A stretch of DNA of 28,662 nucleotides from a virus (lineage: Duplodnaviria > Caudoviricetes): positions 1 through 28,662 of IMG/VR virus record IMGVR_UViG_3300020595_000145. One strand, written 5' to 3'. The position numbers were made by a program, and so were the translations under genes. The notes under the pieces are model-generated. The model saw only the letters and a program-made list of their open reading frames with translations. It did not search any database and was not told where the DNA came from. This document shows positions 4,301 through 28,662 of the stretch, in pieces; positions within the stretch are counted from its first letter, which is position 1, and every line of letters starts with the position of its first letter.

Positions 4301-4761
4301 AAAGAACCATTACTGTAAGTTTTAGAATTAAATGAAATGATCCCAGGCATAGGTTTAATTCCAAAATCAGTTCCTCCAAACCCATAGTTATAATTAGAAG
4401 TAGGTAAATTTGAAGTATCATTAGTTACTCCAAATTTAGATTTAGTATTATTTAAAGTTCCTCCTTGTAGAACTAATTCTTGAGATAATTGATTACCTTT
4501 ATAATTTTCTAATCCTAAAAATTCATTTCTAAACGAGGTCCCATTATCTGAGCCTGTTACATCTTGGTAAATAGTTTCATCAAATTTTAAAACTATTTGA
4601 TCTTCTATATTTACTGAAGATAATAATCTTACCCAAGAAGTTGAAGCATTTTCCCAAACTATATCAGATGAGGTTTTAGAGGGTTTTCCTAAAATATCTT
4701 GACGTGTTTTAATTTGGTCTTTTACATAAGCTAAATGATCTTCTCCTACTATATTAGCCAT
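1360..4761 (-). CDS. Baseplate hub-like protein with C-terminal M15-type peptidoglycan peptidase domain
   Basis: 1133 aa; sits after the LysM-like gene; hub-like N-terminus (LRKATISL...RLGYTMLVEWG, GNYDAFLGRVTNFSW). The C-terminus has SxHxxGxAxD (STHVWGFAID), GLRWGG and DxxHF (DCVHFD), the Zn-binding pattern of M15 peptidases. Confidence 0.7.
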   Translation of the reverse strand: MANIVGEDHLAYVKDQIKTRQDILGKPSKTSSDIVWENASTSWVRLLSSVNIEDQIVLKFDETIYQDVTGSDNGTSFRNEFLGLENYKGNQLSQELVLQGGTLNNTKSKFGVTNDTSNLPTSNYNYGFGGTDFGIKPMPGIISFNSKTYSNGSLRKATISLIAHNRKQFEYIESTYIRLGYTMLVEWGNSNYPLSVDEYASTQDISELTLQNEFLTGFDKGTDLFYTKIENLRKKSKGNYDAFLGRVTNFSWEFTKEGSYTISLDLMSIGSVIESLKINTSLDNIKYTLPSGSTPEESSNDPTPEEDRPTALEVAIDLLTTTQVEEVPVTVKSTSSNTRLGSTNQFVNKTITSPIKTSLTEEEAKSLNLETTAFTKPNNILSCNAAYGNETQESKHYLRLGVLLEFINRKLLVYDKNQNPALISIDNSEDTYCYSNGYSFSGDPSKMINKLDVNLGDEEIKVFPSLPEFHTKIGTERVGKVMNLFYEKEYLKGLIKSKSDEEGNLSIYEFLNQILIDTNRFLGGVNKLKLRVVEKTFAGSNSESTQTFEAVGEAQFVAFNPDATGEFADSDDIAISDSLFQTATVTASRPTEPITKQVLEIYDEVPFKKIDTNPVFNIYGFNGNAGNFVRDYQLTTTLDKDFATMISIGAQATGRAVGEDATVFSKWNIGLVDRIIPTKLDIEKAGQENAQSRVDFSLLRETYKNYLRKLKSSSELSFTNNPGVAGQNSTFAGYGFPDLYLSTTGDNNPTFTKFLSIQRDFFNKVLSYDAERKGITTPFVGFLPINLSLTFDGLSGIRIFDQLTIDSRYLPKNYGETLTFIITELDHVIENNKWITKVGTQSRAKLFDERPEVAIEEQITRIIEESIIEEDPVIEEETPEVIDNRIDSYFYIDRAIARDFRIGRRPKGRRTNSVDEVLQYINNSPYVQNKFRKFLNGLLERYPKDFRFNIGSITRKLDTTTGVGIGSTHVWGFAIDMSIYKAFPKGDDVDGDLVPSKDKLYVRYGTPAGALKWSKLGVPDIAKAAGLRWGGTWTAGTWVYDCVHFDAIPDWKSVSSNAKEVLFEKYPKIQTLLLNRTKRSKEILGAINQTNFLRISNEDGKTVFSAGELEFVNFYGLSSSSSQYVDINDVKGT

Positions 4762-12672: not shown

Positions 12673-14946
12673 TTATTTTTTACTATTTAATTTATTTTTT
12701 ACTATTTTAAATACTTGGTTAGGGGTTATTGATTTCTGGCAAATATGTTGTTTGTCAGTGCCCTTCCAAATGGGACACCAATCCCAATCACCTGCATCAA
12801 AAGTGAAATTTGGGTTAGTCCAACAAGGAAAACATGCATTACCATTAGCTACTCTAGTTACTTTGGTTGTAAATTCATGACCTTTTTCAACAAAACCATT
12901 TATCATTATAGTATGTTTATTTAAAGCCCAATTAAACCATGATAAGCCTGAACCTAATCCTATAAATAGATCAGCATGTAATAAATAATTAGCTATTACA
13001 TTAAAAGGTTGATTCCATGAGTTTATTACATTAGGTAAATCAGATTGATCTTTAGTTAAAGCTACTACTTTATACCCAATTTGGTTTAATAATTTAGTTA
13101 AAATAATCCAGTTTTCTCTTGGCCATTCTTTACACCCAGCAGTAGACTGGGGGCCTATGACTACATACTTTTCTAAAATGGGTTTTGTTTGTTTTTTAAA
13201 ATCAATACCATGATTAATTTCTTTAAAATTTAAACCTAAAATATCTGTAGCTGTTTGTTGTAAAGGTATAGTATTACATTGGGTAGGATGCATATCTGTG
13301 TTTTCCCATCCCCCTTGTTCATTTCTAAACCAACCTATTTTGTAATGAGCTATACAAGGGGTTGAAGTACCAGGGTCAATAAATTGAATTTTTTTATAAG
13401 CAGGAAGATTTTTGAACCAATCATTATGAAAAGTACATAAAATAACTTTACAATTATGTTTTTCAGCAAATTCTACAGCATAGGGAGTCCAAGCTAAAGT
13501 ATCACCTAATGAACTTGAATCAATAGAAATAAATACTGGTTGGTTTTGGAGTTCTAATCTAGAAACCTCTTTTCCATTTACTTTGATTAACCAAGGAATA
13601 TAATATTCTTTACTACATTCTACCCACATATTATTATGGATAGTTTGTTGGTGAATAATTTTATTAGTATCTCTATTGATAAATTCTACTTGATATTCTT
13701 TATCAACATCCCCTATAATTTCTACCTTAGGTTTTCCTATATAATTAACACTTATAGTATTAGTATCTTTGGGTTCTTTATAATTATCTAAAAATTCTTG
13801 GATAGTATCTCTACCAATTTTTGCTACTTTATCCCAATTAAAATCTCTATGAATAATTTTTGCTTCTTCTACAGCACGTTTTTTATGATCTGTATAATTT
13901 TCAAAAGCATCACGCATTACACGAGATAAGTCTTCATAATCAGGTTCGTAATAATTGCCTACATGATTTGGATTTTTAACTTCATTTTTTATTTGTACTG
14001 GGAGGCCTTTACCTTTTGCAAATTCTAATTGCCCTGAACAGTTAGAGTAAATAGAGGGAGTACCGCAAGCCATAGCTTCAATTAAAGGTAAATTCCACCC
14101 TTCACTACGTGCACAAGATAAAAACACATTACCTTGTTTCATATAGGTAACATAATCTTCTCTACTAACAAAATGCTTTACTTTAATACGTTTATCGGTA
14201 AAACCAAAATGTTCTAACCTTTCTTCTGTAGAATTAAAATCATCATTTGCAAAATTATTATCAGCAGCTAAAATAAGATCTACAGGGTCTTCTTTAGTAA
14301 ACGTTTTTAAAAAAGTTTCAATAATTTCTTTTGTTGATTTTCTATATTCCCATCTACCAAAAAGAATAAATTTAAATCTACCATCTACATAATCTAAAGT
14401 AGTTAGAGGATCTTCAGGATAAAAAGTATTTACATCTACACCTTCGGGGACTACTTTTACTTTTTTAGGATCGGCACCTTGAGCAATAGTACAATCTGCT
14501 TGCCATTGAGAAGGAACCCACATTTGATCAAATTCTTTCCATTTATTAAAAAACCCTTTAGGTTGTTCTGTGGATTCCCATACATTATAACCAATTTTAG
14601 GACCTTTATAATAATCATAAAAATAATGATGGTTGGTTTCCATTAATACTAAATTAACATCATGATCAAATTTATCCCCATGTTTAGTATAAATTGAAGA
14701 ATCTTCTCTACTATTATCTCCAGTAGTAAGTGTTTGTTTATTTAATAAAATTTTATCTAAATCTGTAAGATAGGATTCATTATTATGGGGTTCATCTGAA
14801 AACCCTTCCCATGTATTACCTACTGTATAATTACGAACTTTAACTGGAGTTGATTTAGATAAATGTCTAAAAAAATCTCTAGTATGATTAGCATAACCTG
14901 TTGTACCTACATAGGCACCATGAGCATAAACTTTTGGTTCTTTCAT
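12673..14946 (-). CDS. Fusion of a GT4 glycosyltransferase and an Aah/TibC-like (autotransporter strand-loop-strand) O-heptosyltransferase
   Basis: N-terminal GT-B/GT4 motifs (TTGYANHTR; GRWEYRK; ARSEGWNLPLIEAMACG, i.e. E-x7-E). C-terminal half has 'SSSLGDTLAWTPY..EF..KHNC', 'HADLFIGLGSGLSW' and a four-Cys pattern CFPC...WCP...HICQK, like the iron finger of TibC/Aah. Confidence 0.8.
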   Translation of the reverse strand: MKEPKVYAHGAYVGTTGYANHTRDFFRHLSKSTPVKVRNYTVGNTWEGFSDEPHNNESYLTDLDKILLNKQTLTTGDNSREDSSIYTKHGDKFDHDVNLVLMETNHHYFYDYYKGPKIGYNVWESTEQPKGFFNKWKEFDQMWVPSQWQADCTIAQGADPKKVKVVPEGVDVNTFYPEDPLTTLDYVDGRFKFILFGRWEYRKSTKEIIETFLKTFTKEDPVDLILAADNNFANDDFNSTEERLEHFGFTDKRIKVKHFVSREDYVTYMKQGNVFLSCARSEGWNLPLIEAMACGTPSIYSNCSGQLEFAKGKGLPVQIKNEVKNPNHVGNYYEPDYEDLSRVMRDAFENYTDHKKRAVEEAKIIHRDFNWDKVAKIGRDTIQEFLDNYKEPKDTNTISVNYIGKPKVEIIGDVDKEYQVEFINRDTNKIIHQQTIHNNMWVECSKEYYIPWLIKVNGKEVSRLELQNQPVFISIDSSSLGDTLAWTPYAVEFAEKHNCKVILCTFHNDWFKNLPAYKKIQFIDPGTSTPCIAHYKIGWFRNEQGGWENTDMHPTQCNTIPLQQTATDILGLNFKEINHGIDFKKQTKPILEKYVVIGPQSTAGCKEWPRENWIILTKLLNQIGYKVVALTKDQSDLPNVINSWNQPFNVIANYLLHADLFIGLGSGLSWFNWALNKHTIMINGFVEKGHEFTTKVTRVANGNACFPCWTNPNFTFDAGDWDWCPIWKGTDKQHICQKSITPNQVFKIVKNKLNSKK

Positions 14947-14947
14947 A

Positions 14948-15697
14948 TTATCGCATTATGTGACACCCACAATCAATACCTCTAGATCCTTCAAATCCAT
15001 GGTACATAGGTTTAAGTGGAATTTTTTTATTGTTTATATGTTGTAAAATTAAAGTTTCATTAATAAATACATCATTATTATTATCTCGGTATTCTGGGTT
15101 ATGAAATATATTATAAAGCATTTCAGAAAACACGCTACAATAATCTTTTATTAAATGAGGAGGACCGATTGCTAATTGGTCATTCATTTGCCAATCCATA
15201 TTCCAATGTGGAGCGTATTCCCAAAAACTAACGTGTTCTGTACTTAGTTTAGTTATATCTGTAAGTAAATCACAATTATTAGCTACGTTATGAGTAAATA
15301 ATAAATCATAACGTGTTTTAAATACTAAATCATATTCAATACCTGAAGATTCACATAGGTCCCAAACGCGTTGTGTTGACATCCACATTCCCATTTGAGA
15401 ATTTAAACGTTGATTATTAGGACCTTTTATATCTGAAGCATCAAATTGGATAGAAGGTTCAAATAAGTATCCTTTAGGTTGATACCAATCAAGTAAATTT
15501 TGATACAAATCATTTCCTACTTCATATGTTTTTTGAACCTTACCTTCATTAAAAAAGTCATATTTTTTAAATTCAGTATCTTTCCAAGCATGAAGGTATA
15601 CATCAATATCATACTTATCTAAAAACCATTTTTTAAGTTCTTGATAACCTTCTCTATATCTACGTGGTTGACCACTAATTAATAATGCTATTTTCAT
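14948..15697 (-). CDS. Putative glycosyltransferase-like protein (SGQPR / RYD family), paralog 2
   Basis: 249 aa; 'KIALLISGQPR', 'DVYLHAW', 'YDLVFKTRYD', 'NDQLAIG', 'NETL'; resembles GT-A-like proteins of polysaccharide loci. Confidence 0.55.
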   Translation of the reverse strand: MKIALLISGQPRRYREGYQELKKWFLDKYDIDVYLHAWKDTEFKKYDFFNEGKVQKTYEVGNDLYQNLLDWYQPKGYLFEPSIQFDASDIKGPNNQRLNSQMGMWMSTQRVWDLCESSGIEYDLVFKTRYDLLFTHNVANNCDLLTDITKLSTEHVSFWEYAPHWNMDWQMNDQLAIGPPHLIKDYCSVFSEMLYNIFHNPEYRDNNNDVFINETLILQHINNKKIPLKPMYHGFEGSRGIDCGCHIMR

Positions 15698-16458
15698 CGT
15701 AAAATATGAGCTGTAAAATGTTCTGTTAAACTATTTATAAAATTAATAGGTATTTCGTTTTTTACTAAATGATACTTTAATAAACTTTCAGGACATAATT
15801 TATCAGGATGGTCTGAAATTAAAGGTTTAAACCATTCAGGGTATCCTTCATCTATGTAAATGTATTCCAACATATGGGAAAAACAATTAGAATACACATC
15901 CATAATTTCCATAGAACTAATGGCAAACAAATCATCTACTTCAGATATTCTAGTAGGATAACCATTAAGTATAGGATATTCAAATAAATTTATACCACTT
16001 AAATCTAATTGTGTAATGTCCTTTAAAATAAGACATTCAGGTGAAATATAATCTGTAAAAGCTAAATCAAATCTAGTTCTAATAACTATATCGTATTGTT
16101 TACCTGAGTCTTGGAGTAATTTATTACAAGCATAAACTGAATAATACCCACTTAGCATATTATGGAGCCTGTAGCCTAAGTGTCCTTCTATATTTGTTGT
16201 ATCAAAAGGGATAGGGTGTTGTAGAAAACTATCTTTAGGTTGATATAACTCTAATATTTTATCATAGTCATTTTCTGTGAATTTATATTCAACCAAAGTA
16301 GGAGCAAATTTATGTCCCCCAGTCATAGGAGAATTTACATCTTTCCAAGTATGAAGGTAAACATCACAATCATACTTGTCTAAAAACCACTTTTTTAATT
16401 CATGATAACCCTGTTCGTAATTACGGGGTTGACCACTAACACAAACTGCTACTTTCAT
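15694..16458 (-). CDS. Putative glycosyltransferase-like protein (SGQPR / RFD family), paralog 1
   Basis: 254 aa; 'KVAVCVSGQPR', 'DVYLHTW', 'YDIVIRTRFD', 'DDLFAIS', 'PESLL'; clearly paralogous to 14948-15697 and joined to it by an ATGA overlap. Confidence 0.55.
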   Translation of the reverse strand: MKVAVCVSGQPRNYEQGYHELKKWFLDKYDCDVYLHTWKDVNSPMTGGHKFAPTLVEYKFTENDYDKILELYQPKDSFLQHPIPFDTTNIEGHLGYRLHNMLSGYYSVYACNKLLQDSGKQYDIVIRTRFDLAFTDYISPECLILKDITQLDLSGINLFEYPILNGYPTRISEVDDLFAISSMEIMDVYSNCFSHMLEYIYIDEGYPEWFKPLISDHPDKLCPESLLKYHLVKNEIPINFINSLTEHFTAHILR

Positions 16459-17072
16459 TACTTAAAATGACCTCCTCCTAGCCAAAGTACAAATGATTTT
16501 CTAGTACCTGAAGTAACTGGGGTTACTCTATGCATTAGATAAGATGGGAATATTACTACATTACCTTTACCACGTGGTGCAGTATATGGAGACTGACCAC
16601 CTGGCCAAATTTGTAAATCACCACCTTCATATTCATCTGAATCAGATAATTGGACTGTAACAGAAATTTTACGGAATTTCATAAAACCTTCAGTTCCAAT
16701 ATCCATATGCCAATCGTAATGCCCTTTATTAGTACCATAATACTCCGTATACTGAATATTTTCTGGCATATTGTGGATATCAAAATGGAACATTTCATCA
16801 TTAGCAATTTTAGCTAACATACCAATTTTATCATAAATCCATTTAGTTTCATCACTAAACGGAACCCATTTAATCATAGAATTACGTGATTCTAAACCCT
16901 CACCTTCTGCTTGGTTTCCAGATTCAGTTACCCCAGCTTGTGAGGGAATTTCTTGTACTTGTTGTTCGAGAGTTTTTAATTCTTCTGGGGTAAAACCTTC
17001 CTCAAACCAATAATAATTACTTTGATTGACATATTTGTCAAAATCTAATGGAAAAGAATAAAGTGTCTCCAT
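16458..17072 (-). CDS. 2OG-Fe(II) oxygenase, prolyl-hydroxylase-like (PKHD/2OG-FeII_Oxy_3 type)
   Basis: HxD (YDWHMD), 'RKISVTVQLS', 'YEGGDL', distal His (FPSYLMHRVTPV) and RxS (GTRKS). Confidence 0.85.
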   Translation of the reverse strand: METLYSFPLDFDKYVNQSNYYWFEEGFTPEELKTLEQQVQEIPSQAGVTESGNQAEGEGLESRNSMIKWVPFSDETKWIYDKIGMLAKIANDEMFHFDIHNMPENIQYTEYYGTNKGHYDWHMDIGTEGFMKFRKISVTVQLSDSDEYEGGDLQIWPGGQSPYTAPRGKGNVVIFPSYLMHRVTPVTSGTRKSFVLWLGGGHFK

Positions 17073-17078
17073 ATTTTT

Positions 17079-19406
17079 TTATTTTTTATTTGTAAATGAT
17101 ACTAATATATAACGTGTTCCTGTTTCTACTGGTCTACCTCCGTGTAAATGAGTAATGTTTCCGGGGTGAGCCATAGCATATCCTTTTTTACGTGGTTGTA
17201 CTGTAGTTTTATATTTTGGGAGGAATGTACCTCCACCTTTAAATTCATTATTTAATCTAACATTCAATGTAATAACAGAACTATCATGATGCAAGTCTAA
17301 GCTGCCTTGGTTTTCTGTATCGTATTTAGCTATAAAGTTTTCACTGGTTAGATTACCCCAACCATCACCTTGTAATTCCCAAAACCAAGTCCAGATAGGA
17401 TAAACAAATTCCTCTAATACTCTTTGATAAATGTCTTGCATACCTAAACTTTCCATAGTTTGGTCGGTTGTAGGGTAAAATTCATGTCTATCAGTAATCC
17501 ACTCGTTTTGTTCAGCTAAGTCAATAATTTCATTACAGAATTTTTCTGTAAATAATGGGAATTCTATTACGTTAGAAGCAATTTCATCTACCATCAAACG
17601 ATATTGGCCTTTTAATAATGCTGGGTTGATGTATTCTTTGCACCATTCCTCCCAGTTAGATACTTTTTTAATAGATGGGGTTATACCTTGGATATTAAAT
17701 GTAGATAATTGGTCTGCTATATAAAATGTTAAACCAGGGCTATCTTTTTGAATATAATGGTTTATTATAGGAGCTGCTGCTTTTAAACGGGTTTTTCCTG
17801 AGTATTCAGCTAGGATATCTTGGCGATGTGTCATACCAAATGTAATAGAAAGGAATTCATCAAAAGCAAACATTTCACTTTTATATTGTTCCATATATTC
17901 CTCTACTAAAATTTGAACACCTCTTTTAGATAAAATATAAGCGTGAGAATTATAAGTATAATCAGGTTCTACCCATCCATCTAAACCTTCTATTGGTTTT
18001 TCTAATGAAGCCTCTAAAGCATTACGTCCTAAATAAATTAAGTCGTACCCTCTATTTAATAATTCCTCAACTTGAGCCCAGTCTACTGGGGTGTCCTCAT
18101 AGAAGTCTTCTTCTAAAATTAAAGTAGTTTCTAAACCCCTGCGATATGAATCTACCCAAGTATCTACGTGAGATAAACCACAGCCTAATTCACCTTCCAT
18201 TACATCACGTTTCCACCATTTATTACTACCCTCAATATTCCATCTAGAATGTTTAGCTACACCAAATTTATCCCAATCTTCTTGAGACATTTTACGAGCA
18301 TCAAATCCGGGTTTGATAAAATATTCTGTAGGTGAGGGTAAAGTAATATTATTACATTTTTCTACTATCTCTGGGGTTTCTTGTAGTGCTAAAACGTAAA
18401 ATAACTCTAAATTCATATGTGTTTTTGTTATTAAAGAATTCCAATGTTTATTTACTCTGGAGTCCCATGTACATTCATCTAAATAATTAGGTACTTGATC
18501 CCAATCTATAACTTCAGTAGTATTTAAGGTATCAAAACCATTTAATGTTTCTTTTAATCCTCCCCATTCCCATGTAATAGGTTGAACTTTATGTCCTAAC
18601 ATCTCTAAAGCAGTAATACAGAAAGTCTCCTCGTATGATGAGGGATAATACCAATAGGTACTCTCTGCCATTAATTCATATAGCTCATGTTGGGGTAATG
18701 TACCAAGGAATTCTATACCATCCAAATTATCTACTAAATCCTTAAAATAAATGTTGTAATATTCTAACCCATATTCTGGGGTAGATATTTTTAGTGTAGC
18801 CTTAGGGTTATTAGATTTAATATCACCCCATTCTTGTAGAAGTTGAAATAATCCTCGTTCACAATGTGAGGTATAAATGTATTGATTTGGGTTTTTATTA
18901 CCTATTTTAAATTTAGAAATATCTACTCCATTACCTATAACTTGGATTTTATCTCTAGTTTCTGGGAATTGTTCTATAAATTTGTTTTTATGCCATTCTG
19001 TTAGACAGACTATAGATTTTAAGCGAGAATCTAATAAAAGTTCACGATGGTTTGGTAGTTCTTCGCCATTCCACCACGTGAAATAATCGGTATTATGTAC
19101 CCAAAATATCGAATCGGTATACTCGATATCCTCAAATTCTTTAATGTAATGAATGTATGAAACCCCAATAATAGTATCTACAGAATCGACTTCATTTTTG
19201 AAATCTTGTGTGGGTCTATACATTACTCCATCATAATCCCCATAAACTACCCCACCAACGACCCAAATATCCCAAATTGGATTTTGGGATTTAAGGGTTT
19301 TAGCTAAATTTATAATACATTGTTCTGTACCCCCTAAACCAATTTCGTCTATAGTTTCAGGTGAGTAAGGTGGGAAATAATATCCCGCGTATATAACTAA
19401 TTTCAT
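17079..19406 (-). CDS. Three-domain fusion: GT4-like glycosyltransferase + COLGALT-like GT25 + PLOD-like lysyl hydroxylase
   Basis: aa ~1-325 GT-B (GLGGTE; YEETFCITALEM). aa ~331-560 GT25 (GELGCGLSH, LILEED, YDLIYLGR, VEPDYTYNSHAYILS, DEFL). aa ~580-775 matches the PLOD lysyl-hydroxylase pattern (FPLFTEKFC, YPTTD, NFIAKY, LHHDSS.ITLNV.LN, GGGT, HPGNITHLHGG.P...GTRYILVSF). Confidence 0.85.
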   Translation of the reverse strand: MKLVIYAGYYFPPYSPETIDEIGLGGTEQCIINLAKTLKSQNPIWDIWVVGGVVYGDYDGVMYRPTQDFKNEVDSVDTIIGVSYIHYIKEFEDIEYTDSIFWVHNTDYFTWWNGEELPNHRELLLDSRLKSIVCLTEWHKNKFIEQFPETRDKIQVIGNGVDISKFKIGNKNPNQYIYTSHCERGLFQLLQEWGDIKSNNPKATLKISTPEYGLEYYNIYFKDLVDNLDGIEFLGTLPQHELYELMAESTYWYYPSSYEETFCITALEMLGHKVQPITWEWGGLKETLNGFDTLNTTEVIDWDQVPNYLDECTWDSRVNKHWNSLITKTHMNLELFYVLALQETPEIVEKCNNITLPSPTEYFIKPGFDARKMSQEDWDKFGVAKHSRWNIEGSNKWWKRDVMEGELGCGLSHVDTWVDSYRRGLETTLILEEDFYEDTPVDWAQVEELLNRGYDLIYLGRNALEASLEKPIEGLDGWVEPDYTYNSHAYILSKRGVQILVEEYMEQYKSEMFAFDEFLSITFGMTHRQDILAEYSGKTRLKAAAPIINHYIQKDSPGLTFYIADQLSTFNIQGITPSIKKVSNWEEWCKEYINPALLKGQYRLMVDEIASNVIEFPLFTEKFCNEIIDLAEQNEWITDRHEFYPTTDQTMESLGMQDIYQRVLEEFVYPIWTWFWELQGDGWGNLTSENFIAKYDTENQGSLDLHHDSSVITLNVRLNNEFKGGGTFLPKYKTTVQPRKKGYAMAHPGNITHLHGGRPVETGTRYILVSFTNKK

Positions 19407-19424
19407 AACTTTTTACTAATTTAT

Positions 19425-19661
19425 TTAAGGTATTTCACTTATATCTGGTTGATACCATTCATCAATTCTATTTGGAGAGTAAATCCAATCTTGAACGTCA
19501 TTGGACTTTTCAAATTTTACTAGATAATCTGATATTACATAGCTATGGTGAACTTCAATTATACATTCACTTCCACTTGTATTCCATACAGGAGAATACT
19601 CTAAATTATCAGAATGTACATTATATTGACTTACATTTAAAATATAATAAAATTGTGCCAT
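19425..19661 (-). CDS. Small hypothetical protein, possibly a fibre-associated/assembly factor
   Basis: 78 aa acidic/aromatic ORF filling the gap directly after the LamG-tipped fibre gene (10 nt and 18 nt spacers). Confidence 0.55.
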   Translation of the reverse strand: MAQFYYILNVSQYNVHSDNLEYSPVWNTSGSECIIEVHHSYVISDYLVKFEKSNDVQDWIYSPNRIDEWYQPDISEIP

Positions 19662-19671
19662 AATTCAAAAA

Positions 19672-22600
19672 TTAAAATCCATACGCTCCAAAACTCATTC
19701 CGCTTATAGAAACATTGGAGAGGTTATTATTGTATTGAGTAATAGTACCCCCATCATCAAAACTAACATTTGTAATTAAATTAGTAGTACTTATAGTTTG
19801 TGCTGCTTCTGCTCTTGTAGAATCATATAGATTACTAACTACTGATGATGATAGTGTTTTATTATAAAAAGCCCACTCGTCTATTCTACCATTCCATGGG
19901 ACAGTTGTTAAAGCATGTCTTTGAGCACCTATAGCTAACCTTCCCATAGTATTATTAGTTCTAGTATTATTATTAGAGACTGCTACAGAAGTTAATTGTG
20001 AAGCATTCCAATAACATTTAAATGCATTTGAAGCTATAGTTTGGGATGCATCATAGGTAATTGTAAGCATACACATATTATCACTATTAACATTACCCCT
20101 ATTTGTACTTAACCATTTATTTGAAGAAGAAGTACCAGTACCTGTAGCTGAGTTATTATCATGTAAAGCCCACTGAGCATCAAAGTTTGTAGCGTTAGTT
20201 CTTATTCTCATTATAAGTCTATTAGAACTTTGGTTGTATTGTAAGAATGTACGATTATTAGTACCAGAAGTAGTATTATTAAAATCCCATACAGTACGAT
20301 TTGCTGCTGATGTTTGGTCCATTCTAACATATACTCTAATACTCCAATCAAAATTAGTTAGATTATCGTAAGAGCCATTCATAGTAGCTGTAACATTATC
20401 ATTAGTACCATCAAAATCGCCGTAGTAATAATTTTTATATGCTTGTTCTGCACTTGTAATTAAACCATTTGTAAAATCTAAAGCGGTAGAATAACCTGCT
20501 TGGTCTTTTAATCCATATATTGTAGGGGATGTTGAAACACCTGGATAAGTAGCTTGTGATTGACCTGGGTTACCTTTAGGGCCAATTAAACCAATAGGAC
20601 CTTCAGGACCTTGAGGTGAAGGACCAATAGGACCAATAGGACCAATAGCACCAATAGGACCAATGGCACCTGTAGCACCTGATGGACCAATGTTACCAAT
20701 TAGACCTTCAGGACCTTGTGGACCATTTGGACCTTGTGGACCATTTGGACCTTGAGGACCAATAGCACCTTGTACACCTATAGGACCTTTAGCACCTGTT
20801 CTACCTTTAGGACCAATAGCACCTATAGCACCAGCTGGACCTTGAGGTCCTCTAGCACCTGGGGCTCCTTGAACATTAGCTGGACCAATAGGACCGATAC
20901 TACCTTTAGGACCAATTAAACCTTCAGGACCTATAGGACCTTTAGGACCTTGTGGTCCTAACGGACCAATTGATGCTGTAGGACCTTTAGGACCTATTAA
21001 ACCTTCAGGACCTTGAGGACCTAATGGACCAATTGGACCAATAGGACCTTCAGGACCTTTAGCACCAATATCTGGTGTATTACCTTTAGGACCAATTAAA
21101 CCTTCAGGACCTCTTGGACCTTTAGGACCAATAGGACCTTTAGGACCAATTAAACCTCTAGCACCAATACCAGCATCTGTACCTCTAGGACCTATTAAAC
21201 CTTCGGGACCTTGTGGACCTAAAGGACCTAATGGACCAATAAGACCTTGAGGACCTATAGGACCATTTACATTTTCTATACCTCTATCACCTATTAAACC
21301 TTCAGGACCTTGTGGGCCTAATGGACCTTGTGGGCCTATATTTCCTTGTGGACCAATAGCACCGATAGCACCAGCGGGACCTTGAGGACCTTCAGGACCA
21401 ATAGCACCTTTAGGACCTATATTACCTATACCACCTGTTCTACCTTTAGGACCAATAGCACCTATAGCACCTATTGGACCTTTATTACCTATCAAACCTT
21501 CAGGACCTTGGGGACCTAATGGACCAATTGGGCCAATATTACCTTCAGGACCTTTAGGACCAATATCAGGTGTATTACCTTTAGGACCTATTAAACCTTC
21601 AGGACCTTGTGGTCCTAATGGACCAATATTACCTTGTGGACCTATTGGGCCAATAGCACCTTGTGGTGCCGCAGGACCTATATTACCAATTAGACCTTCA
21701 GGACCTTGCGGTCCTATAAGACCTTCAGGACCAATAGGACCTTGTGGACCAATAGCTCCTTGATTACCCGATATACCTTTAGTACCTATGGGACCTGTTA
21801 CTCCTTTAGGGCCTTTATTACCTCTAGGACCTTCGGGACCTTGTGGTCCTAATGGACCAATTGCGCCTGCAGGGCCCTGTGGTCCCAGTGGACCTATAAT
21901 ACCTTTAGGTCCTATATTACCTATACCACCTGTTCTACCTTTAGGACCAATAGCACCTATAGCGCCCGATGGACCTTTATTACCAATAAGACCTTCAGGA
22001 CCTTGTGGGCCTAATGGGCCAATAGGACCAATGTTACCTTCAGGGCCTTTAGGACCAATATCTGGTGTATTACCTTTAGGACCTTGAGGACCAAGTGGTC
22101 CTATAGCACCATTATCTCCTCTAGGACCTTGAGGACCTTGAATTCCTTGATCGCCTGAGGTGTAAATTTCGTCTGTGTGTTGGTACCATGTAGAACCTGA
22201 TGATTCTGATGGTTTTTTCCAAAATACTGTTAAACCGTCACCACCACTATATTCTTGTTGATAAACTACAATATTATAACTAGTACCTGCTGTTAATGAA
22301 ATAGTACCAGTTGTAGTACCTAAAGCGCTTCTACCTCTACCACCATAAAAAGAAGCAACAATAGTACTTCCAATTTTCAATTGAACAGAATCATCAGATT
22401 CTGCTGTAAAGGTGTACGTACCAGTTTCTGTTGGTCTAAATATACCTGTTACTCTGGTTGAAAAATATGCTCCAGAATTAGGGACTGTAATTCCTAAGGA
22501 TTCAAGTAGGGCTGTAGTAGTCCAATTTAAAGCATTAGTTGTATTATTTAAGTCACTAACTACTGAATCTGTAAATGATGTATTTGATAGGTTTACATTA

Positions 22601-23952
22601 AAGAATGATTCAAAATCTGAAGCATTACCTGGGTAATTTGAATATTGAGAAGTATTACCATTACCATTATGAGTAGAGAAAGTTTCTATTAATACACTAC
22701 CTTCAATTTCATTTGGTTGACCTTTAGGACCTATAAGACCTTCAATACCTTTAGGACCTTGTGGGCCTAATGGACCAATAGCACCTTGTGGGGCTGCTGG
22801 ACCAATAGGACCAATAGCACCTTGGGCTACATCTTCACCAATAAGACCTATAGGACCTTGTGGTCCTAATGGACCGATAGGACCTTTAGGACCTTGTGGA
22901 CCTAATGGACCAATTGCACCTTGTGGGGCAGCTGGGCCTATATTACCTATTAAACCTTCAGGGCCTTGAGGACCTTGGGGACCTAATGGACCAATAGCAC
23001 CTATAGGACCAATAGGTCCGTTTACAGCTTCTACACCAATAGCACCAATCCCCCCTGTTAGGCCTTTATCACCTATAAGACCTTCAGGACCTTGTGGTCC
23101 TAATGGACCAATTGCACCTTGTACGTTTGCATCTCCTCTAGGACCAATTGCACCTTGTACGTTTGCATCCCCTCTAGGACCAATATCACCTCTAGAGCCT
23201 ATAAGACCTTCAGGACCAATAGGACCTTGTGGGCCTAAGGGACCAATATTACCTTTTTCTGCTGCGTTACCTATATTACCAATTAAACCTTCAGGACCAA
23301 TATTACCTCTAGGACCTTCAGGGCCTTGTGGACCTAATGGACCAATTGCACCTTGTACATTTGCATCCCCTCTAGGACCAATAGCACCTTGTGGAGCATC
23401 AGCACCTATATTACCTATTAAACCTTCAGGACCTTGTGGTCCTATAGGACCTTCATTACCTTTTATACCTTGAGGACCTTTAGGACCTGTTACATTAGTA
23501 GGACCTTTAGGGCCTATAGCACCTTGAGGTGCAGCATCTCCAATTAAACCTTCAGGACCTTGTGGTCCTATAGGACCTTCATTACCTTTTATACCTGTAA
23601 TTCCTTTAGGTCCTTGTAAACCTCTAGGGCCCCGATCACCTTGTGGTCCTTGTAATTCTATTTTACCTGAACCACTATCACCTACTGCAATACTATTTGT
23701 ATTAGAATCAAATATTACAGCACCTGTAGGTGGGTTAGCAGGGGCTCCAGCTTGGGTAGGTAAAATAATAGTAGCATCGTTACTAACATTTAATGTTTTA
23801 GTATCGGAGTCCTTCATTTCCATTAAGGAATCTCCTCTTTCATTAGTAACTTCAACTACAGAACCACTAATAGTATAAATAATTTTACTACCGTTTCCGT
23901 TATCGAACTCTACACTACCTGAGGAAGGTATTATTTTAACGCTTTTAGCCAT
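19672..23952 (-). CDS. Collagen-like fibre protein with internal PA14 domain and C-terminal LamG/ConA-like lectin domain
   Basis: 1426 aa; Gly-X-Y tracts at aa ~100-410 and ~600-1130; PA14 motif (FSTRVTG.F.P.ETGTYTF..ESDDSV.L.I...YQQEYSGG); LamG-like end (FDGTND...[23 protein letters not shown]). Confidence 0.85.
20565..22155 (-). repeat. Coding 9-nt collagen repeat tract (C-terminal tract of the 1426 aa protein)
   Basis: Period-9 GGTCCTNNN repeats, with higher-order repetition of the [10 protein letters not shown]...[13 protein letters not shown] block (about 22080, 21585, 21090). Confidence 0.9.
22720..23650 (-). repeat. Coding 9-nt collagen repeat tract (N-terminal tract of the 1426 aa protein)
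   Basis: Period-9 repeats, including a 36-nt tandem duplication at 23105-23140/23141-23176 (1 mismatch). Confidence 0.9.
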
Positions 23953-23971
23953 TTATATGGATATCTATTTA

Positions 23972-26821
23972 TTAACTAAAACTAACAAGTACACCTTGTT
24001 CAAACCCAAAATTACTAGTTGTACCATCAGCTCCCTGGATTGAAAAGTCAGTATCTATTCCAGTAGGGGCATCAGCACCCGCTGGACCAATATTACCTTG
24101 TGGACCTCTAGGACCAATAGCACCTGTAGTACCTGCAGGACCAATAGCACCTCTAGGGCCAATATTACCTTTTGGACCAATAGGTGAAGAACCTCCAGGA
24201 CCAATAGGACCTTGGACCCCAATAGGACCTCTAGGACCAATTGGACCTCTAGGACCAATAGCACCTTCAGGACCAATAGGTGAGTTACCAATAGGACCTT
24301 GTGCTCCTGTTGGTCCTTCAGGACCAATAGGTGAGTTACCAATAGGACCTCTAGGACCCTGAGCACCACTAGGTGATGTACCTTTAGGACCAATAGCACC
24401 TCCTGGACCTATAGGACCTTGTGGACCTATAGCACCTTGAGGACCAATAGGACCTCTAGGACCAATAGGTGAAGTACCTTTTGGACCAATAGGACCTTGA
24501 ACCCCAATAGGACCTCTAGGACCAATTAAACCTCTAGGACCTTGAATACCTTGTGGACCAATTGGTGAACTACCAGCAGGACCAATAGGACCTTGAATAC
24601 CTATAGCACCTGCAGGACCAATAGCACCACCAGGACCAATAGGACCTTGTGGACCAATTGGTGAACTACCAGCAGGACCAATAGGACCTTGAATACCAAT
24701 AGGACCTCTAGGACCTCTTGGACCAATATTACCAATAGGACCTTGTGGACCAATTGGTGAAGTACCTTTAGGACCAATAGGACCTTGGTTTCCAATAGGA
24801 CCTCTTGGACCAATTAAACCTCTAGGACCTTGGATACCTTGTGGACCAATAGGTGAATTTCCAATAGGACCTCTAGGACCAATAGCACCTCCAGGACCAA
24901 TATTACCAATAGGACCTTGTGCTCCTGTTGGTCCTTCAGGACCAATAGGTGAAGCACCTTGAGGACCGATAGGACCTTGTATACCAATAGGACCTCTAGG
25001 ACCAATTAAACCTCTAGGACCTTGAATACCTTGTGGACCAATTGGTGAACTACCAGCAGGACCAATAGGACCTTGAATACCAATAGGACCTCTAGGACCA
25101 ATATTACCTATACTACCTTTAGGGCCAATATTACCTTGTGGTGATGTACCTTTAGGACCAATAGGGCCTTGAACTCCAATAGGACCTCTAGGACCTCTAG
25201 GACCAATATTACCAATAGGACCTCTAGGACCAATAGGTGAAGCACCTTGTGGTCCAATGGGGCCTTGTTCTCCGCCTACACCAATAGGACCAATAGGACC
25301 TTGAATACCAATTGGGCCTCTAGGACCGATGGGTGAATTTCCAATAGGACCTCTAGGGCCAATAGCACCTCCAGGACCTATATTACCGATAGGACCCTGT
25401 GCCCCTGTTGGTCCTTCAGGACCGATAGGAGAGTTACCTTGTGGTCCAATAGGACCTTGAATACCGATAGGACCTCTAGGACCAATATTACCTTGGGGAC
25501 CTTGAATACCAATAGGACCTATAGGTGAACTACCAGCTGGGCCAATAGGACCTCTAGGACCGATAGGACCTATATCACCTTTAGTACCTTTAGGTCCTGC
25601 TGGACCTTGTGCTCCTGTTTGACCTTTATCTCCTTTAGGACCAATAGGACCTTGAATACCTTGTGGACCAATTGGACCTCTAGGACCGATTGGACCAATA
25701 GGTGAAGTACCTTTAGGACCAATAGGACCAATAGGAGATGTTCCTTTAGGACCCGTAGGACCAATAGGACCTCTAGGACCAATTGCACCTTGTATGCCAA
25801 TAGGACCTCTAGGACCAATATTACCAATAGGAGATGTTCCTTTAGGACCAATAGGACCTTGGATACCTATAGGACCTCTAGGACCTCTAGGACCAATGTT
25901 ACCAATATTACCTTTAGGACCAATTGGTGAAGTACCTTTAGGACCTTCAGGACCTTGAGCACCTGTTGGACCAATAGGACCTTGTATACCAATAGGACCC
26001 CTTGGACCTATAGGACCAATAGGAGATGTCCCTTTGGGACCAATAGGACCAATAGGTGAAGTACCTTTTGGACCAATAACACCTATAGGACCTATAGGAC
26101 CTTGTGGACCAATATTACCGATAGGACCTCTAGGACCAATGTTACCAATAGGGGATGTTCCTTTAGGACCAATAGGACCTTGTGGTCCAATGTCACCAAT
26201 AGGACCTTGAATTCCAATAGGACCTCTAGGACCAATAGGACCAATAGGTGAAGTACCTTTTGGACCTATAGGACCAATTGGTGAAGTACCTTTAGGACCT
26301 TCAGGACCTTGGGGGCCAATTAAACCTCGTGGACCTTGAATACCTGTGGGACCCTGAATACCTTGTGGACCAATAGGAGATGTTCCTTTAGGTCCAATAG
26401 GACCAATAGGTGAAGTACCTTTAGGACCTTGTGGTCCAATTAAACCTCTAGGACCTTGTATACCTGTAGGACCTTGGGCTCCGTCGTCTCCAATAGGACC
26501 TTGTGGACCTCTAGGACCTTGAACACCTTTTTGACCACCACCTATTTCAAATTGTGTACTACTTTTTACAAGTAATTGATTTGTTGATGAATCAAAGAAC
26601 ATAGCTCCTTCAGGAGCATCCGATGGAGTACCACTTACAGTGGGAATTATAAATTCAGCACTATTATCTATGTTGATAGTACTACCAGTCATAGACATGA
26701 GGGTAGTACCACCCGCCTTAGTGGTGAGGGTACCGCCATCCATTTCCATTTCTACGCTATTACCTCCGTCTGTGAATTCAAAGCTACCTGAGCCGGGGAT
26801 TATTGTAACGTTTTTAGCCAT
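23972..26821 (-). CDS. Collagen-like fibre protein (about 820 aa Gly-Pro-Y tract)
   Basis: 949 aa; about 95 aa N-domain, long [12 protein letters not shown] tract with G(T/N/S/A)SPIG interruptions, about 30 aa C-terminal beta segment. Confidence 0.9.
24070..26540 (-). repeat. Coding collagen repeat tract of the 949 aa protein
   Basis: Period-9 repeats with 15-nt interruptions; 98-nt identical blocks at 24504-24601 and 24984-25081. Confidence 0.9.
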
Positions 26822-26835
26822 GTTCTTTTATTTAA

Positions 26836-26844
26836 TATAAATAT
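26836..26844 (-). promoter_or_regulatory. Putative late promoter motif ATATTTATA heading the collagen/modification block
   Basis: 14 nt upstream of the ATG at 26821. Confidence 0.55.
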
Positions 26845-26848
26845 ATGA

Positions 26849-28662
26849 TTATTTAACTTGGTACTCAACTTCTATTGGTCCATCTGCTTTTCTTTCTGCA
26901 TGAACTATGTAGTAAGCATTAACTTCTCCACATTGACATCCTACAGTAATTGATGCAGTTGTAACAGTATCTACATAATGAGTACATGGACTTCCTACGG
27001 GAGTTAATTGGACTGATATACTGTCTTCGTATACTAACCCGCTCCAGTAATCTGGGAGTTCAATTGTGTTACTTCCGCTGAGATGACCTCTAACATAAAC
27101 ACCTCTTTCAGGACCCTCCATTACAGAGTGACGAAGTCTCCATCCTTCTTTTGTTGGGTGTGGTATATCAAACTGTTTTTCTTCAGCTGTAAATACACCT
27201 GAAACATTAAAGGTATTTCCATCCCAAGTAAGTCCAGCATCACTAGTAACAGTATTAGCATCTGACCAATAAGTTATACGAGTAGCAGCACCTGAACCAT
27301 CTACTAGACTAGAACCCCAAACACGAGAATCAATCTCATCTGTTTTTAGGAAACCATCTGCATCTTTTATTACTACAGAGTTATCAACACCTGTAGTTAA
27401 ATTGGCTTTTACTGTATTAGCAATAATTTCCCAAGGATTAGTAGTATCACCTAAGGTATTTCCTGAAGCTTCTGAAATTATATCCCCATCTATTTTCCCT
27501 TGGAATTGGATGGTATCAGTTGCTGCATTACCCAATATAGTATTACCTGTTACAGTTAAACCCCCAGTTACAGTTAGTGTACTACCATTAAATACTAAAT
27601 TAGCTTCTGCATTAGCTGCACCTTGAACCCCAGTTGAAGTTAATACTCTATTATTACCTAAATTAGTTATAGTAGCTGTACCTGAAGTACCTGAGCTACC
27701 TGATGAACCTGAAGTACCTGATGAGCCTGATGAACCACTTGAACCTGATGTACCTGAGCTGCCTGAACTACCTGATGAGCCTGAGCTACCACTTGTACCT
27801 GAAGTACCTGATGAGCCTGAACTGCCTGATGAACCTGAAGAACCACTTGATCCACTAGTACCTGATGAGCCTGATGAACCACTTGAACCTGATGTACCTG
27901 ATGTACCTGAGCTGCCTGAACTACCTGATGAGCCTGATGAGCCTGAACTACCTGAAGTACCTGATGAACCACTTGAACCTGATGAGCCTGATGTACCTGA
28001 GCTGCCTGAACTACCTGATGAGCCTGATGAGCCTGAACTACCTGATGAACCCGCAGCACCACCTACAGCAAAGTTAGAATAAAATTCTTCGTTATTTGAA
28101 GGTGTTGCACCTGTTCTAGTTACATTACTTAGAGAAAAAAGCCAATAAACTCCTTCGTCTCCTATAGCTGTGAAGCCATTTAATATTATTTTAGCTGTTG
28201 ATGTTTTTGAGGTAAAGGTAATAGTACCTGATAACTCCATATCTCCAAATAGAGAAGCAAAGTTTGTTGCAGGGGAGAATGCTTGTTCTGCAATTTCTAA
28301 ACTATCACCACTAGATATACTTCCCCAAGCTACATCAAACCCAAAGTATCCTGTACCTGGGAGGGAAAGTAGATTAGTTGTGTATTTCCAAGTTGCTACA
28401 CTATCGGGAGCACCTGAACTACCTGATGAGCCTGATGAACCACTAGAACCTGATGTACCTGATGAACCACTTGAACCCGAAGTGCCTGAAGAGCCTGAGC
28501 TACCGCTTGTACCTGAAGAACCTGAGCTACCTGATGTACCTGATGAGCCACTTGAACCTGAGGTTCCAGAAGTAGCTGCTGCTTCTTTTGTTTTTACTAC
28601 CCCATCGGAGTCTATTACTAATACAGTATCCTCGTTAGGTGCTGTAGGGAGAGTACCTGAGA
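26849..28662 (-). CDS. Tail fibre-like protein with Gly-Ser-Ser/Gly-Thr-Ser repeats and C-terminal intramolecular-chaperone-like domain (5'-truncated)
   Basis: The frame stays open upstream of the ORF-track Met at 28240 to the window edge (SGTLPTAPNEDTVLVIDSDGVVKTKEAAATSGTSGSSG...APDSVATWKYT...). The C-terminal 'KQFDIPHPTKEGWRLRHSVMEGPERGVYVRG...IELPDYW...VQLTP' is typical of phage fibre ends. Confidence 0.8.
   Translation of the reverse strand, partial: SGTLPTAPNEDTVLVIDSDGVVKTKEAAATSGTSGSSGSSGTSGSSGSSGTSGSSGSSGTSGSSGSSGTSGSSGSSGSSGSSGAPDSVATWKYTTNLLSLPGTGYFGFDVAWGSISSGDSLEIAEQAFSPATNFASLFGDMELSGTITFTSKTSTAKIILNGFTAIGDEGVYWLFSLSNVTRTGATPSNNEEFYSNFAVGGAAGSSGSSGSSGSSGSSGSSGTSGSSGSSGSSGTSGSSGSSGSSGSSGSSGTSGTSGSSGSSGSSGTSGSSGSSGSSGSSGSSGTSGTSGSSGSSGSSGSSGTSGSSGSSGSSGTSGSSGSSGTSGTATITNLGNNRVLTSTGVQGAANAEANLVFNGSTLTVTGGLTVTGNTILGNAATDTIQFQGKIDGDIISEASGNTLGDTTNPWEIIANTVKANLTTGVDNSVVIKDADGFLKTDEIDSRVWGSSLVDGSGAATRITYWSDANTVTSDAGLTWDGNTFNVSGVFTAEEKQFDIPHPTKEGWRLRHSVMEGPERGVYVRGHLSGSNTIELPDYWSGLVYEDSISVQLTPVGSPCTHYVDTVTTASITVGCQCGEVNAYYIVHAERKADGPIEVEYQVK
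27678..28052 (-). repeat. (Gly-Ser-Ser/Gly-Thr-Ser)n coding repeat, block 1
   Basis: 9-nt period (acctgatga / gcctgatga / acctgaagt on the + strand), about 125 aa. Confidence 0.9.
28410..28575 (-). repeat. (Gly-Ser-Ser/Gly-Thr-Ser)n coding repeat, block 2
   Basis: Same 9-nt period, in the same frame as block 1, about 55 aa. Confidence 0.85.

Follow-up and report, generated by a model that had tools for sequence, protein, structure and literature searches.

Does a bacteriophage build collagen fibres and decorate them with hydroxylysine-linked sugars, a modification described for animals and mimivirus? Prokaryotic collagen-like proteins are described as mostly unmodified homotrimers (PMC8968730). 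The question is raised by a gene block in the 28.7-kb virus record IMGVR_UViG_3300020595_000145, the 28,662 nucleotides of which are called the window here. Its main genes all lie on the - strand and include those for a contractile-tail sheath, tube, hub and baseplate wedge, and its source is an uncultured, T4-related phage. The block, in the structural region, codes for two collagen chains (A and B) and six to eight enzyme domains, among them a glycosyltransferase of family 4 (GT4), one of family 25 (GT25) and a lysyl hydroxylase (LH), fused in one protein of 775 amino acids (aa). An earlier note on this DNA had proposed that the phage places hydroxylysine-linked glycans on its own collagen. 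The reading reached here, drawn from the sequence basis of domain identities, intact catalytic residues, gene order, a register match between the chains and co-occurrence in other genomes, is that the block would probably build heterotrimeric virion fibres and modify them after translation. The block is real and widespread; its chemistry and its presence in virions are predictions.

Domains were assigned by sequence comparison, which placed GT4 at about residues 1–330, GT25 at about 335–560 and LH at about 580–775 of the fusion; the AlphaFold model (mean predicted local distance difference test score 86.8) has a low-confidence, flexible linker at 565–575, ahead of LH. The best PDB matches of LH were PLOD3 (E 8e-26) and mimivirus L230 (E 8e-25), with the next oxygenase at 5e-3, and the match to these two spans the whole domain including its N-terminal extension. 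Residues that bind iron and 2-oxoglutarate (2OG) are named in PMC5802723; their counterparts in the window (Y695, H706, D708, H755, R765) do not vary among the phage LH domains (18 of 18), and intact pairs are under purifying selection, with ratios of nonsynonymous to synonymous substitution (dN/dS) of 0.09–0.22 in 8 pairs. The domain is a PLOD/L230-type hydroxylase with its catalytic residues intact, and lysine 5-hydroxylation is its predicted activity. At the homodimer contact, where a Leu enters an aromatic pocket (L873; Y798, Y801, Y831), L873 is replaced by Ile or Val, Y798 by Trp and Y831 by Ile, Leu or Met, while another Trp is always present.

When 1.84 billion representatives were searched with a profile, 206 LH matches came out at E ≤1e-30. 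They fall into two groups, one long-loop and L230-like, the other large and short-loop, with all 18 phage rows in it. In a quick, unrooted tree of 170 rows, with no named PLOD or L230 row among them and no support for a direction of transfer, the long-loop group received 98% in the Shimodaira–Hasegawa-like approximate likelihood ratio test (SH-aLRT). When 56 longer matches were scanned with Pfam, a true PLOD glycosyltransferase domain was found fused to short-loop LH in 6 proteins, which ties the short-loop clade to hydroxylysine glycosylation. The LH fusion was not found in 50,697 records of cultured phages, which yielded only oxygenases at 25–29% identity. Elsewhere the fusion occurs as two open reading frames (ORFs) at L006:4791-7118, where the division lies inside LH, and at L115:4-1640; these may be true splits or assembly errors. 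Two further proteins, P0152 and P0176, have a Peptidase C39 domain fused to LH (with GT25 as well in P0176), hinting at peptide-maturation uses of short-loop LH.

Across unrelated phage lineages the hydroxylase shows a strong link to collagen genes whose products bear lysine. A first scan found collagen upstream in 18 of 18 loci with upstream DNA, 5 of the 23 loci being cut off; the wider scans took the best 80 matches of each, out of 216 and 331. Clustering of the 148 viral LH loci at 90% identity yielded 54 clusters: in 36 the locus includes collagen, in 8 it does not despite at least 5 kb of upstream DNA, and 10 are too short. Collagen thus adjoins LH in 36 of 44 informative clusters, in T4-related and crAss-like phages, and when clusters are drawn at 70% identity, 12 of 13 have at least one member linked to collagen. 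Background viral collagen loci, chosen for a Gly-Pro pattern with Pro at three X positions in 1 of 64 collection parts, had a clear LH in 2 of 79 flanked cases, with one further weak oxygenase match; 27 whole background records held no full-length LH match and 3 weak partial ones. The association of enzymes with collagen genes, offered by the earlier note as a check on its proposal, was found. Loci are related by descent, so that these counts are not independent events and p-values are optimistic. In the distant LH-collagen group the genes sit between portal and capsid-type genes, and PHROG matches suggest that this lineage is crAss-like.

In the window lysine stands solely at the Y position of Gly-X-Y (31 of 250 and 19 of 244 triplets), and in chain A it is found in 15 of the 28 triplets that stand next to last ahead of a break or an end, versus 8 of 148 internal ones. 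For comparison with the background, 18 of 130 loci were dropped (contig repeats, near-copies, LH-positive or sister-clade) and 17 had no qualifying run. The median share of lysine at Y was 3.4% in the remaining 95 loci, 31% in 18 distant LH loci and 17.6% in three loci of a sister LH group. Same-family loci without LH in the slot had no lysine in 1,394 triplets (8 loci, median 0%); in the one sister contig read fully from collagen to sheath, the slot carries other enzymes and a TibC fusion (see below for this type) without LH, and the collagen is Gly-X-Thr/Gln. Whole-record searches of the LH-free relatives, which are 3–59% complete, did not find LH. The setting of the lysines differs too. In background collagens Lys is followed by Gly-Asp/Glu, a salt-bridge context, in 298 of 422 cases (89 expected), versus 8 of 298 (4 expected) in this clade and 635 of 2151 (597 expected) for further LH-adjacent lysines.

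Both collagen chains have about 250–260 triplets, with Ile at 35% of Y positions. Chain A consists of an N-domain (1–95), for which the Atlas gave weak leads only, to phage trimerisation/Mtd_N domains (scores 0.88–0.90), and a helix (96–917) mostly of 10-triplet segments parted by 2-residue breaks. Chain B has a homologous N-domain (43% identity), a helix (102–1132) with 3-residue breaks and a looped-out insert of 186 aa holding a PA14 domain, and a C-terminal globular part of about 290 aa with no Pfam match. When each chain was coded as units of triplets and breaks, with the PA14 insert counted as one unit, both helices came to 283 units and 19 of the 20 breaks in chain B fell on breaks in chain A, a coincidence matched by 0 of 2000 segment shuffles. 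Breaks also coincide in other genomes (20/21 in L105, 13/14 in L112, 4/4 in L108), and poorly when chains from different genomes are paired (5/21 and 6/20). Of 253 aligned triplets no more than 9 are the same in both chains, so the pair is not a recent duplication. The simplest reading of equal lengths and matched breaks would be an A + B heterotrimer; a side-by-side bundle of two homotrimers is a less simple one. As a separate observation, three adjoining collagen genes occur at L114:3966-9973 (176/181/180 units) and at L120:2851-9960 (215/216/215 units), candidate ABC heterotrimers.

The sole significant PDB match of GT25 was human COLGALT1 (E 6e-13). Its ExD and catalytic residues (E432/D434, D516, E517) are invariant in 27 of 27 full fusions. 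In COLGALT1 itself D522 is the base and E523 may anchor the lysine amine (PMC12987934); short-loop GT25 proteins keep D522 in 42 of 42 and E523 in 38 of 42. Most architectures found have GT25 and LH fused. The N-terminal GT4 domain is, from its family chemistry, a candidate for a second, retaining transfer. The GT4 part was also met alone, in proteins of about 1,100 aa adjoining Gly-X-Thr collagens without lysine at Y (L155, L159, L166), and several loci with this part only lie on very large or GVMAG contigs.

TibC modifies serines, and the last gene of the block, a 757-aa fusion of GT4 (about 1–390) with a GT9-type domain (416–750), is predicted to encode a serine O-glycosyltransferase of the TibC/Aah family. 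That domain matches TibC (PDB 4RAP) over its full length (E 3e-43) and scores 229.5 bits with TIGR04414 (BAHT; cut-off 200), as against 26.7 for LPS (lipopolysaccharide) heptosyltransferase I. The catalytic and iron-finger residues named in PMC4358343 are present (D482, T602, K606, W670 and four cysteines); across 35 phage domains D110, K230, W305 and C339/342/358/370 of BAHT are kept in all and T226 in 32. R286, for adenine/ADP recognition, is Ile in the window and hydrophobic or Thr in the 12 commonest variants listed, and the equivalent of P300 is Gly or Ser, so the sugar donor may differ from ADP-heptose. Among loci L001–L167, 22 have a Ser/Thr Gly-X-Y repeat and 17 of these also a TibC-like domain, 3 of them without LH; many of the 64 TibC loci are too short upstream for a repeat neighbour to be assessed. 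The block is thus more than one hydroxylysine pathway, since its TibC-like gene occurs without LH beside Ser/Thr-repeat fibres. The likely acceptor is the Gly-Ser/Thr-Ser fibre encoded upstream of the collagens.

The two enzyme classes between these fusions are less clear. The best matches of the 204-aa oxygenase are PKHD-type Sbal_3634 and PiuC, prolyl 4-hydroxylases being weaker, and a homologue occurs in an LH-free, Thr-type block as well. With Pro at Y in 3 of 494 triplets, proline hydroxylation at that position was not borne out, and on the best matches and this count the reading as a collagen prolyl 4-hydroxylase was rejected. The 254- and 249-aa proteins do form a paralogous pair, as the earlier note had it (33% identical; a viral family with 1 to 3 copies per locus), but their likeness to glycosyltransferases is weak, with DUF7796 at E 5e-4 for one of them and otherwise phrog_13607, a family of unknown function. 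From their invariant R-x-D, D and E they are putative glycosyltransferases.

The genes were found on the - strand at the places given earlier (Table 1), the tail sheath following the 757-aa fusion after an 83-aa gene. From collagen A to that fusion the gaps are 19, 10, 18, 6, -1, -4 and 1 nt; the claim of gaps of 19 nt or less, or overlaps, holds only when a 78-aa ORF that the earlier note had not listed is counted.

Table 1. Features of the gene block and its surroundings in the window
Feature	Position	Strand	Remarks
Gly-Ser/Thr-Ser repeat fibre protein, C-terminal part	26849..28662	-	open at window end, at least 604 codons
ATATTTATA motif, head of block	26836..26844	-	14 nt ahead of first collagen
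Collagen chain A, 949 aa	23972..26821	-	
Collagen chain B, 1426 aa	19672..23952	-	
78-aa ORF, no family match, only in close relatives	19425..19661	-	between collagen B and LH fusion
775-aa GT4-GT25-LH fusion	17079..19406	-	
204-aa PKHD/PiuC-type 2OG-Fe(II) oxygenase (phrog_61)	16458..17072	-	
254-aa DUF7796/phrog_13607-like protein	15694..16458	-	
249-aa paralogue of the 254-aa protein	14948..15697	-	
757-aa GT4 + GT9/TibC fusion	12673..14946	-	

The motif at the head of the block, ATATTTATA, has 7 copies in the window, all on the - strand (chance mean 2.4; 2 of 100 shuffles reach 7). As claimed earlier it is missing from the inside of the block, the best match ahead of any internal gene having at least 2 mismatches. 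In related loci a copy stands no more than 45 nt from the tube gene in 17 of 17, from the sheath gene in 13 of 17 and from the LH fusion gene in 4 of 16, the last being the sole internal enzyme gene that it precedes. It is common to the head of the block, sheath and tube, and is likely a late-gene signal, a late promoter element.

The block recurs in a complete 170-kb relative (G006), whose capsid is of the T4 gp23 type and whose terminase is T4-type; the order there is capsid, PhoH, head-tail adaptor, two unknown genes, giant Gly-Ser-Ser protein, collagen A, collagen B, enzymes and sheath; the gene at the Gly-Ser-Ser position has at least 705 such triplets within one 6.9-kb stretch. By its sheath the closest cultured phage is Flavobacterium phage vB_FspM_immuto_2-6A (Immutovirus; 54% identity), a kinship that suggests a host in Flavobacteriia. 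The window also encodes, at 1360-4761, a protein of 1133 aa in the baseplate region, whose C-terminal domain is an M15 peptidase (Pfam E 4e-6). The complete relative carries a second sugar-handling cluster (L338:3803-12395) with two DegT aminotransferases, a PglD-like protein, a HAD/nucleotidyltransferase, methyltransferases and a RuBisCO-like protein (L338:8431-9666); GT2, GT4 and a sulfotransferase are nearby in L337.

On this evidence the following course may be proposed. The block would very probably be transcribed late from ATATTTATA, its collagens being virion fibres, probably neck or collar whiskers because they are encoded between the head-tail adaptor gene and the sheath. There are good grounds to expect A and B to form a single, segmented triple helix that kinks at common points, roughly every 10 triplets, and leaves PA14 looped out, and it is likely that LH would 5-hydroxylate Y-position lysines before the helix closes. 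The chances are about even that GT25 puts the first sugar on hydroxylysine and the fused GT4 a second, replacing the missing PLOD glucosyltransferase. Separately, the TibC-like domain would probably O-glycosylate serines of the upstream Gly-Ser-Ser fibre from a donor that is probably not ADP-heptose. The modification likely serves to keep long, Ile-rich fibres soluble, to make them resist proteases or to shield their surface. A bolder generalisation is put forward tentatively: aquatic phages of unrelated lineages, probably on Bacteroidota, may combine heterotrimeric collagen bearing hydroxylysine-linked disaccharides, made by one three-domain enzyme in the bacterial cytoplasm, with TibC-type serine glycosylation of a second fibre.

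A good deal weighs against the hydroxylysine part of this scheme. The capping loop (PLOD3 590–610) is 9–10 residues shorter in phage LH and so not full length, with equivalents of H595 and D611 kept and of D597/R599 absent, and Pfam found no PLOD glucosyltransferase domain (PF25342) in the 775-aa fusion at E 0.01. In COLGALT1, K470, Y494 and W495 line the cleft and W495A abolishes activity (PMC12987934). K470 and W495 are kept in 16 of 18 and 17 of 18 long-loop L230-like proteins; in short-loop GT25 each is kept in 1 of 42 (Y494 in 38 of 42), and the window has Asn at both sites. With Asp and Glu kept and these two replaced, GT25 is COLGALT-like in catalysis with an unlike acceptor cleft, and its transfer to hydroxylysine is a prediction. 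Two metagenome contigs (L448:368-2701 and L449:382-2703; P0113, P0114) encode an LH without HxD, distal His and Arg, and between them GT25 is 83% identical (dN/dS 0.19) and the dead LH 64% (0.40); they amount to a natural uncoupling of the two domains, and among the viral loci no fusion with dead LH was found. Their short collagen ends keep one GPK each, within the only ~100 collagen residues there. Nor are the lysines themselves decisive. Background collagens also avoid Lys at X, and in E. coli prophage collagens no triplet is commoner than GPK (15%; PMC3368898). The confinement of Lys to Y was ruled out as evidence, and GPKG with Lys at Y is not evidence by itself. The median lysine at Y in this clade is 9.0% (11 loci) against the background 3.4% (p 0.06, marginal), and L012, L108, L020 and L113 have 0.5–3% despite intact LH. 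A partner-chain acid is near 10 of 55 window lysines (2.9 expected) and 4 of 4 in chain A of L108, so that these lysines may simply form salt bridges. For the register match, breaks do not coincide in L114, L120, L020 and L151, where one chain has few breaks; L114 and L120 nonetheless have helices of matching length, and L020 and L151 are uninformative.

Such findings make room for fibres decorated without the animal-type hydroxylysine cascade, in which GT25, the GT4s and the DUF7796-like pair would glycosylate Ser/Thr (hinge Gly-Thr-Ser, Gly-Ser-Ser) or extend TibC-primed glycans, LH making unglycosylated hydroxylysine or acting on another residue. The systematic replacement of the K470 and W495 equivalents speaks for this, as do GT25 conserved beside dead LH, GT4-LH fusions without GT25 (L140–L150), LH behind Thr-rich non-collagen repeats in L386, L388 and L389, and the predominance of Ile, Gln and Arg over Lys at Y in this clade. 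Yet the usual fusion of GT25 to LH and the retained E523 fit it poorly, and it is Lys, not Ile, that is enriched across LH lineages. Ile as the LH target is not favoured: among distant LH loci it accounts for 2% of Y positions, and in L031, with no LH adjoining, for 50%. Residues that stabilise the Y position in host-guest work include Ile, Gln and Arg. Fibre decoration of this kind seems on the whole unlikely, if a serious contender. As to the hydroxylysine-linked glycans on phage collagen proposed earlier, what stands is the intact PLOD/L230-type LH, the COLGALT1-like GT25, the link to Lys-collagens and the head motif; the animal-type product Glc-Gal-Hyl is not supported, given the missing PLOD domain and the replaced cleft residues. 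At L386:721-7154, and similarly in L388 and L389, the collagen position is held by mucin-like repeat proteins of 1149 and 974 aa, rich in Thr, Ser and Trp, ahead of GT4 and GT25-LH genes.

It is improbable that the enzymes act on host molecules (LPS, other surface glycans, proteins or a metabolite) and stand beside fibre genes by descent. GT25, GT4 and GT9 do include LPS enzymes in their Pfam descriptions, and 8 informative clusters of 44 have no collagen neighbour, so that LH does not always adjoin collagen. Of 7 LH loci in prokaryote genomes, six (L345–L350) have no collagen neighbour, which counts against the scheme above as well, and the seventh, from a Flavobacteriaceae metagenome-assembled genome, is a collagen locus that looks phage-like; one bacterial homologue lies beside a PLP-dependent enzyme and an acyl-AMP-ligase-like gene, as labelled by sequence reading. 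However, the collagen link recurs across unrelated virion types, the head motif is that of the sheath and tube genes, and the GT9 domain scores as protein-modifying Aah/TibC rather than as an LPS heptosyltransferase. The 17 virus records without collagen near LH, all fragments, comprise 2 with large Lys-collagens elsewhere (two contigs of the collagen-distant cluster), 4 with Ser/Thr-type or small repeats and 11 with none. Modification of phage DNA bases is very hard to credit: phage 2OG oxygenases and glycosyltransferases are known to modify DNA (PMC2938197, PMC9614988) and a PHROG family labelled "DNA endonuclease" matches LH, but the closest characterised relatives modify proteins and the block sits among virion genes. 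The complete relative, moreover, has separate QueC, PTPS, radical SAM and GTP cyclohydrolase genes (L339:916-6398), far from the block. Such a set is typical of 7-deazaguanine DNA modification.

Among the bacterial loci, L346–L349 include GT4-LH fusions of Granulosicoccaceae and Chromatiales without a collagen neighbour, and in Aquimarina RZ0, GT25 with a degenerate LH adjoins an intact stand-alone LH (60% identity).

If the scheme is true, it extends hydroxylysine glycosylation and heterotrimers to bacterial viruses, makes the short-loop LH/GT25 clade a large prokaryotic-virus branch of the PLOD/COLGALT machinery and bears on the origin of that chemistry; it would also offer compact enzymes for modified recombinant collagen, working in the bacterial cytoplasm. 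In the literature, covered mostly at abstract level and outside subscription journals and supplements, no PLOD-type or TibC-type fibre-modifying system and no heterotrimeric collagen of a phage was found. Immutovirus shares the order of head, sheath, tube, hub and tape-measure genes, and its slot before the sheath has neither collagen repeats nor the enzyme block. The E. coli O157 prophage fibres EPclA (PMC3368898) resemble the window's as Gly-Pro-Y collagens that carry Lys, and seldom Pro, at Y; they are short homotrimers, rich in Asp/Glu and unglycosylated when recombinant, whereas the window has two long, register-matched chains with dedicated enzymes adjoining. Predicted bacterial operons of beta-hydroxylases and sulfotransferases with collagen-like or tail-collar proteins (PMC2938197) likewise point to prokaryotic hydroxylation of collagen-like proteins, and mycobacteriophages glycosylate capsid and tail-tube proteins of their virions with their own enzymes (Freeman 2023, as cited in PMC12619734); the enzyme families differ in both cases, with no PLOD-type LH or GT25.

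Three systems come closer. With the bacterial autotransporter heptosyltransferases TibC/Aah (BAHT; PDB 4RAP) the last gene shares a full-length match, the catalytic Asp, Thr, Lys and Trp, four Cys and a Ser-rich repeat protein nearby; it differs in being phage-encoded and fused to GT4, in the loss of R286 and P300 and in its likely acceptor, a Gly-Ser-Ser fibre and not an autotransporter. L230 of Acanthamoeba polyphaga mimivirus (PDB 6AX6), a GT25-like glucosyltransferase with LH, is likewise a viral enzyme whose COLGALT-like domain and LH share a single chain, in a genome with collagen-like genes, and its Fe ligands and 2OG binders are conserved in phage LH; hydroxylysine has been confirmed in mimivirus particles and its glucosylation has not (PMC9614988). 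The phage enzyme belongs to a bacterial virus, has an N-terminal GT4, a shorter capping loop and a separate LH clade, lacks the PLOD glycosyltransferase domain that most long-loop relatives have, and differs at the K470/W495 equivalents and in the dimer pocket (Y831 to Ile). Human LH3/PLOD3 with COLGALT1/GLT25D1 (the KOGG complex; PDB 6FXK, 8ZGC, 9EVJ) shares the LH fold and ligands, D522/E523, ExD, Gly-X-Lys sites and, as is likely for the phage too, a heterotrimeric substrate. The phage version is one polypeptide without the PLOD glucosyltransferase or accessory domain and without the D597-R599 part of the loop, and its collagens are almost without Pro at Y. By its predicted chemistry the block thus resembles mimivirus L230 and PLOD3/COLGALT1, being neither a full PLOD nor, by its acceptor cleft, a COLGALT.

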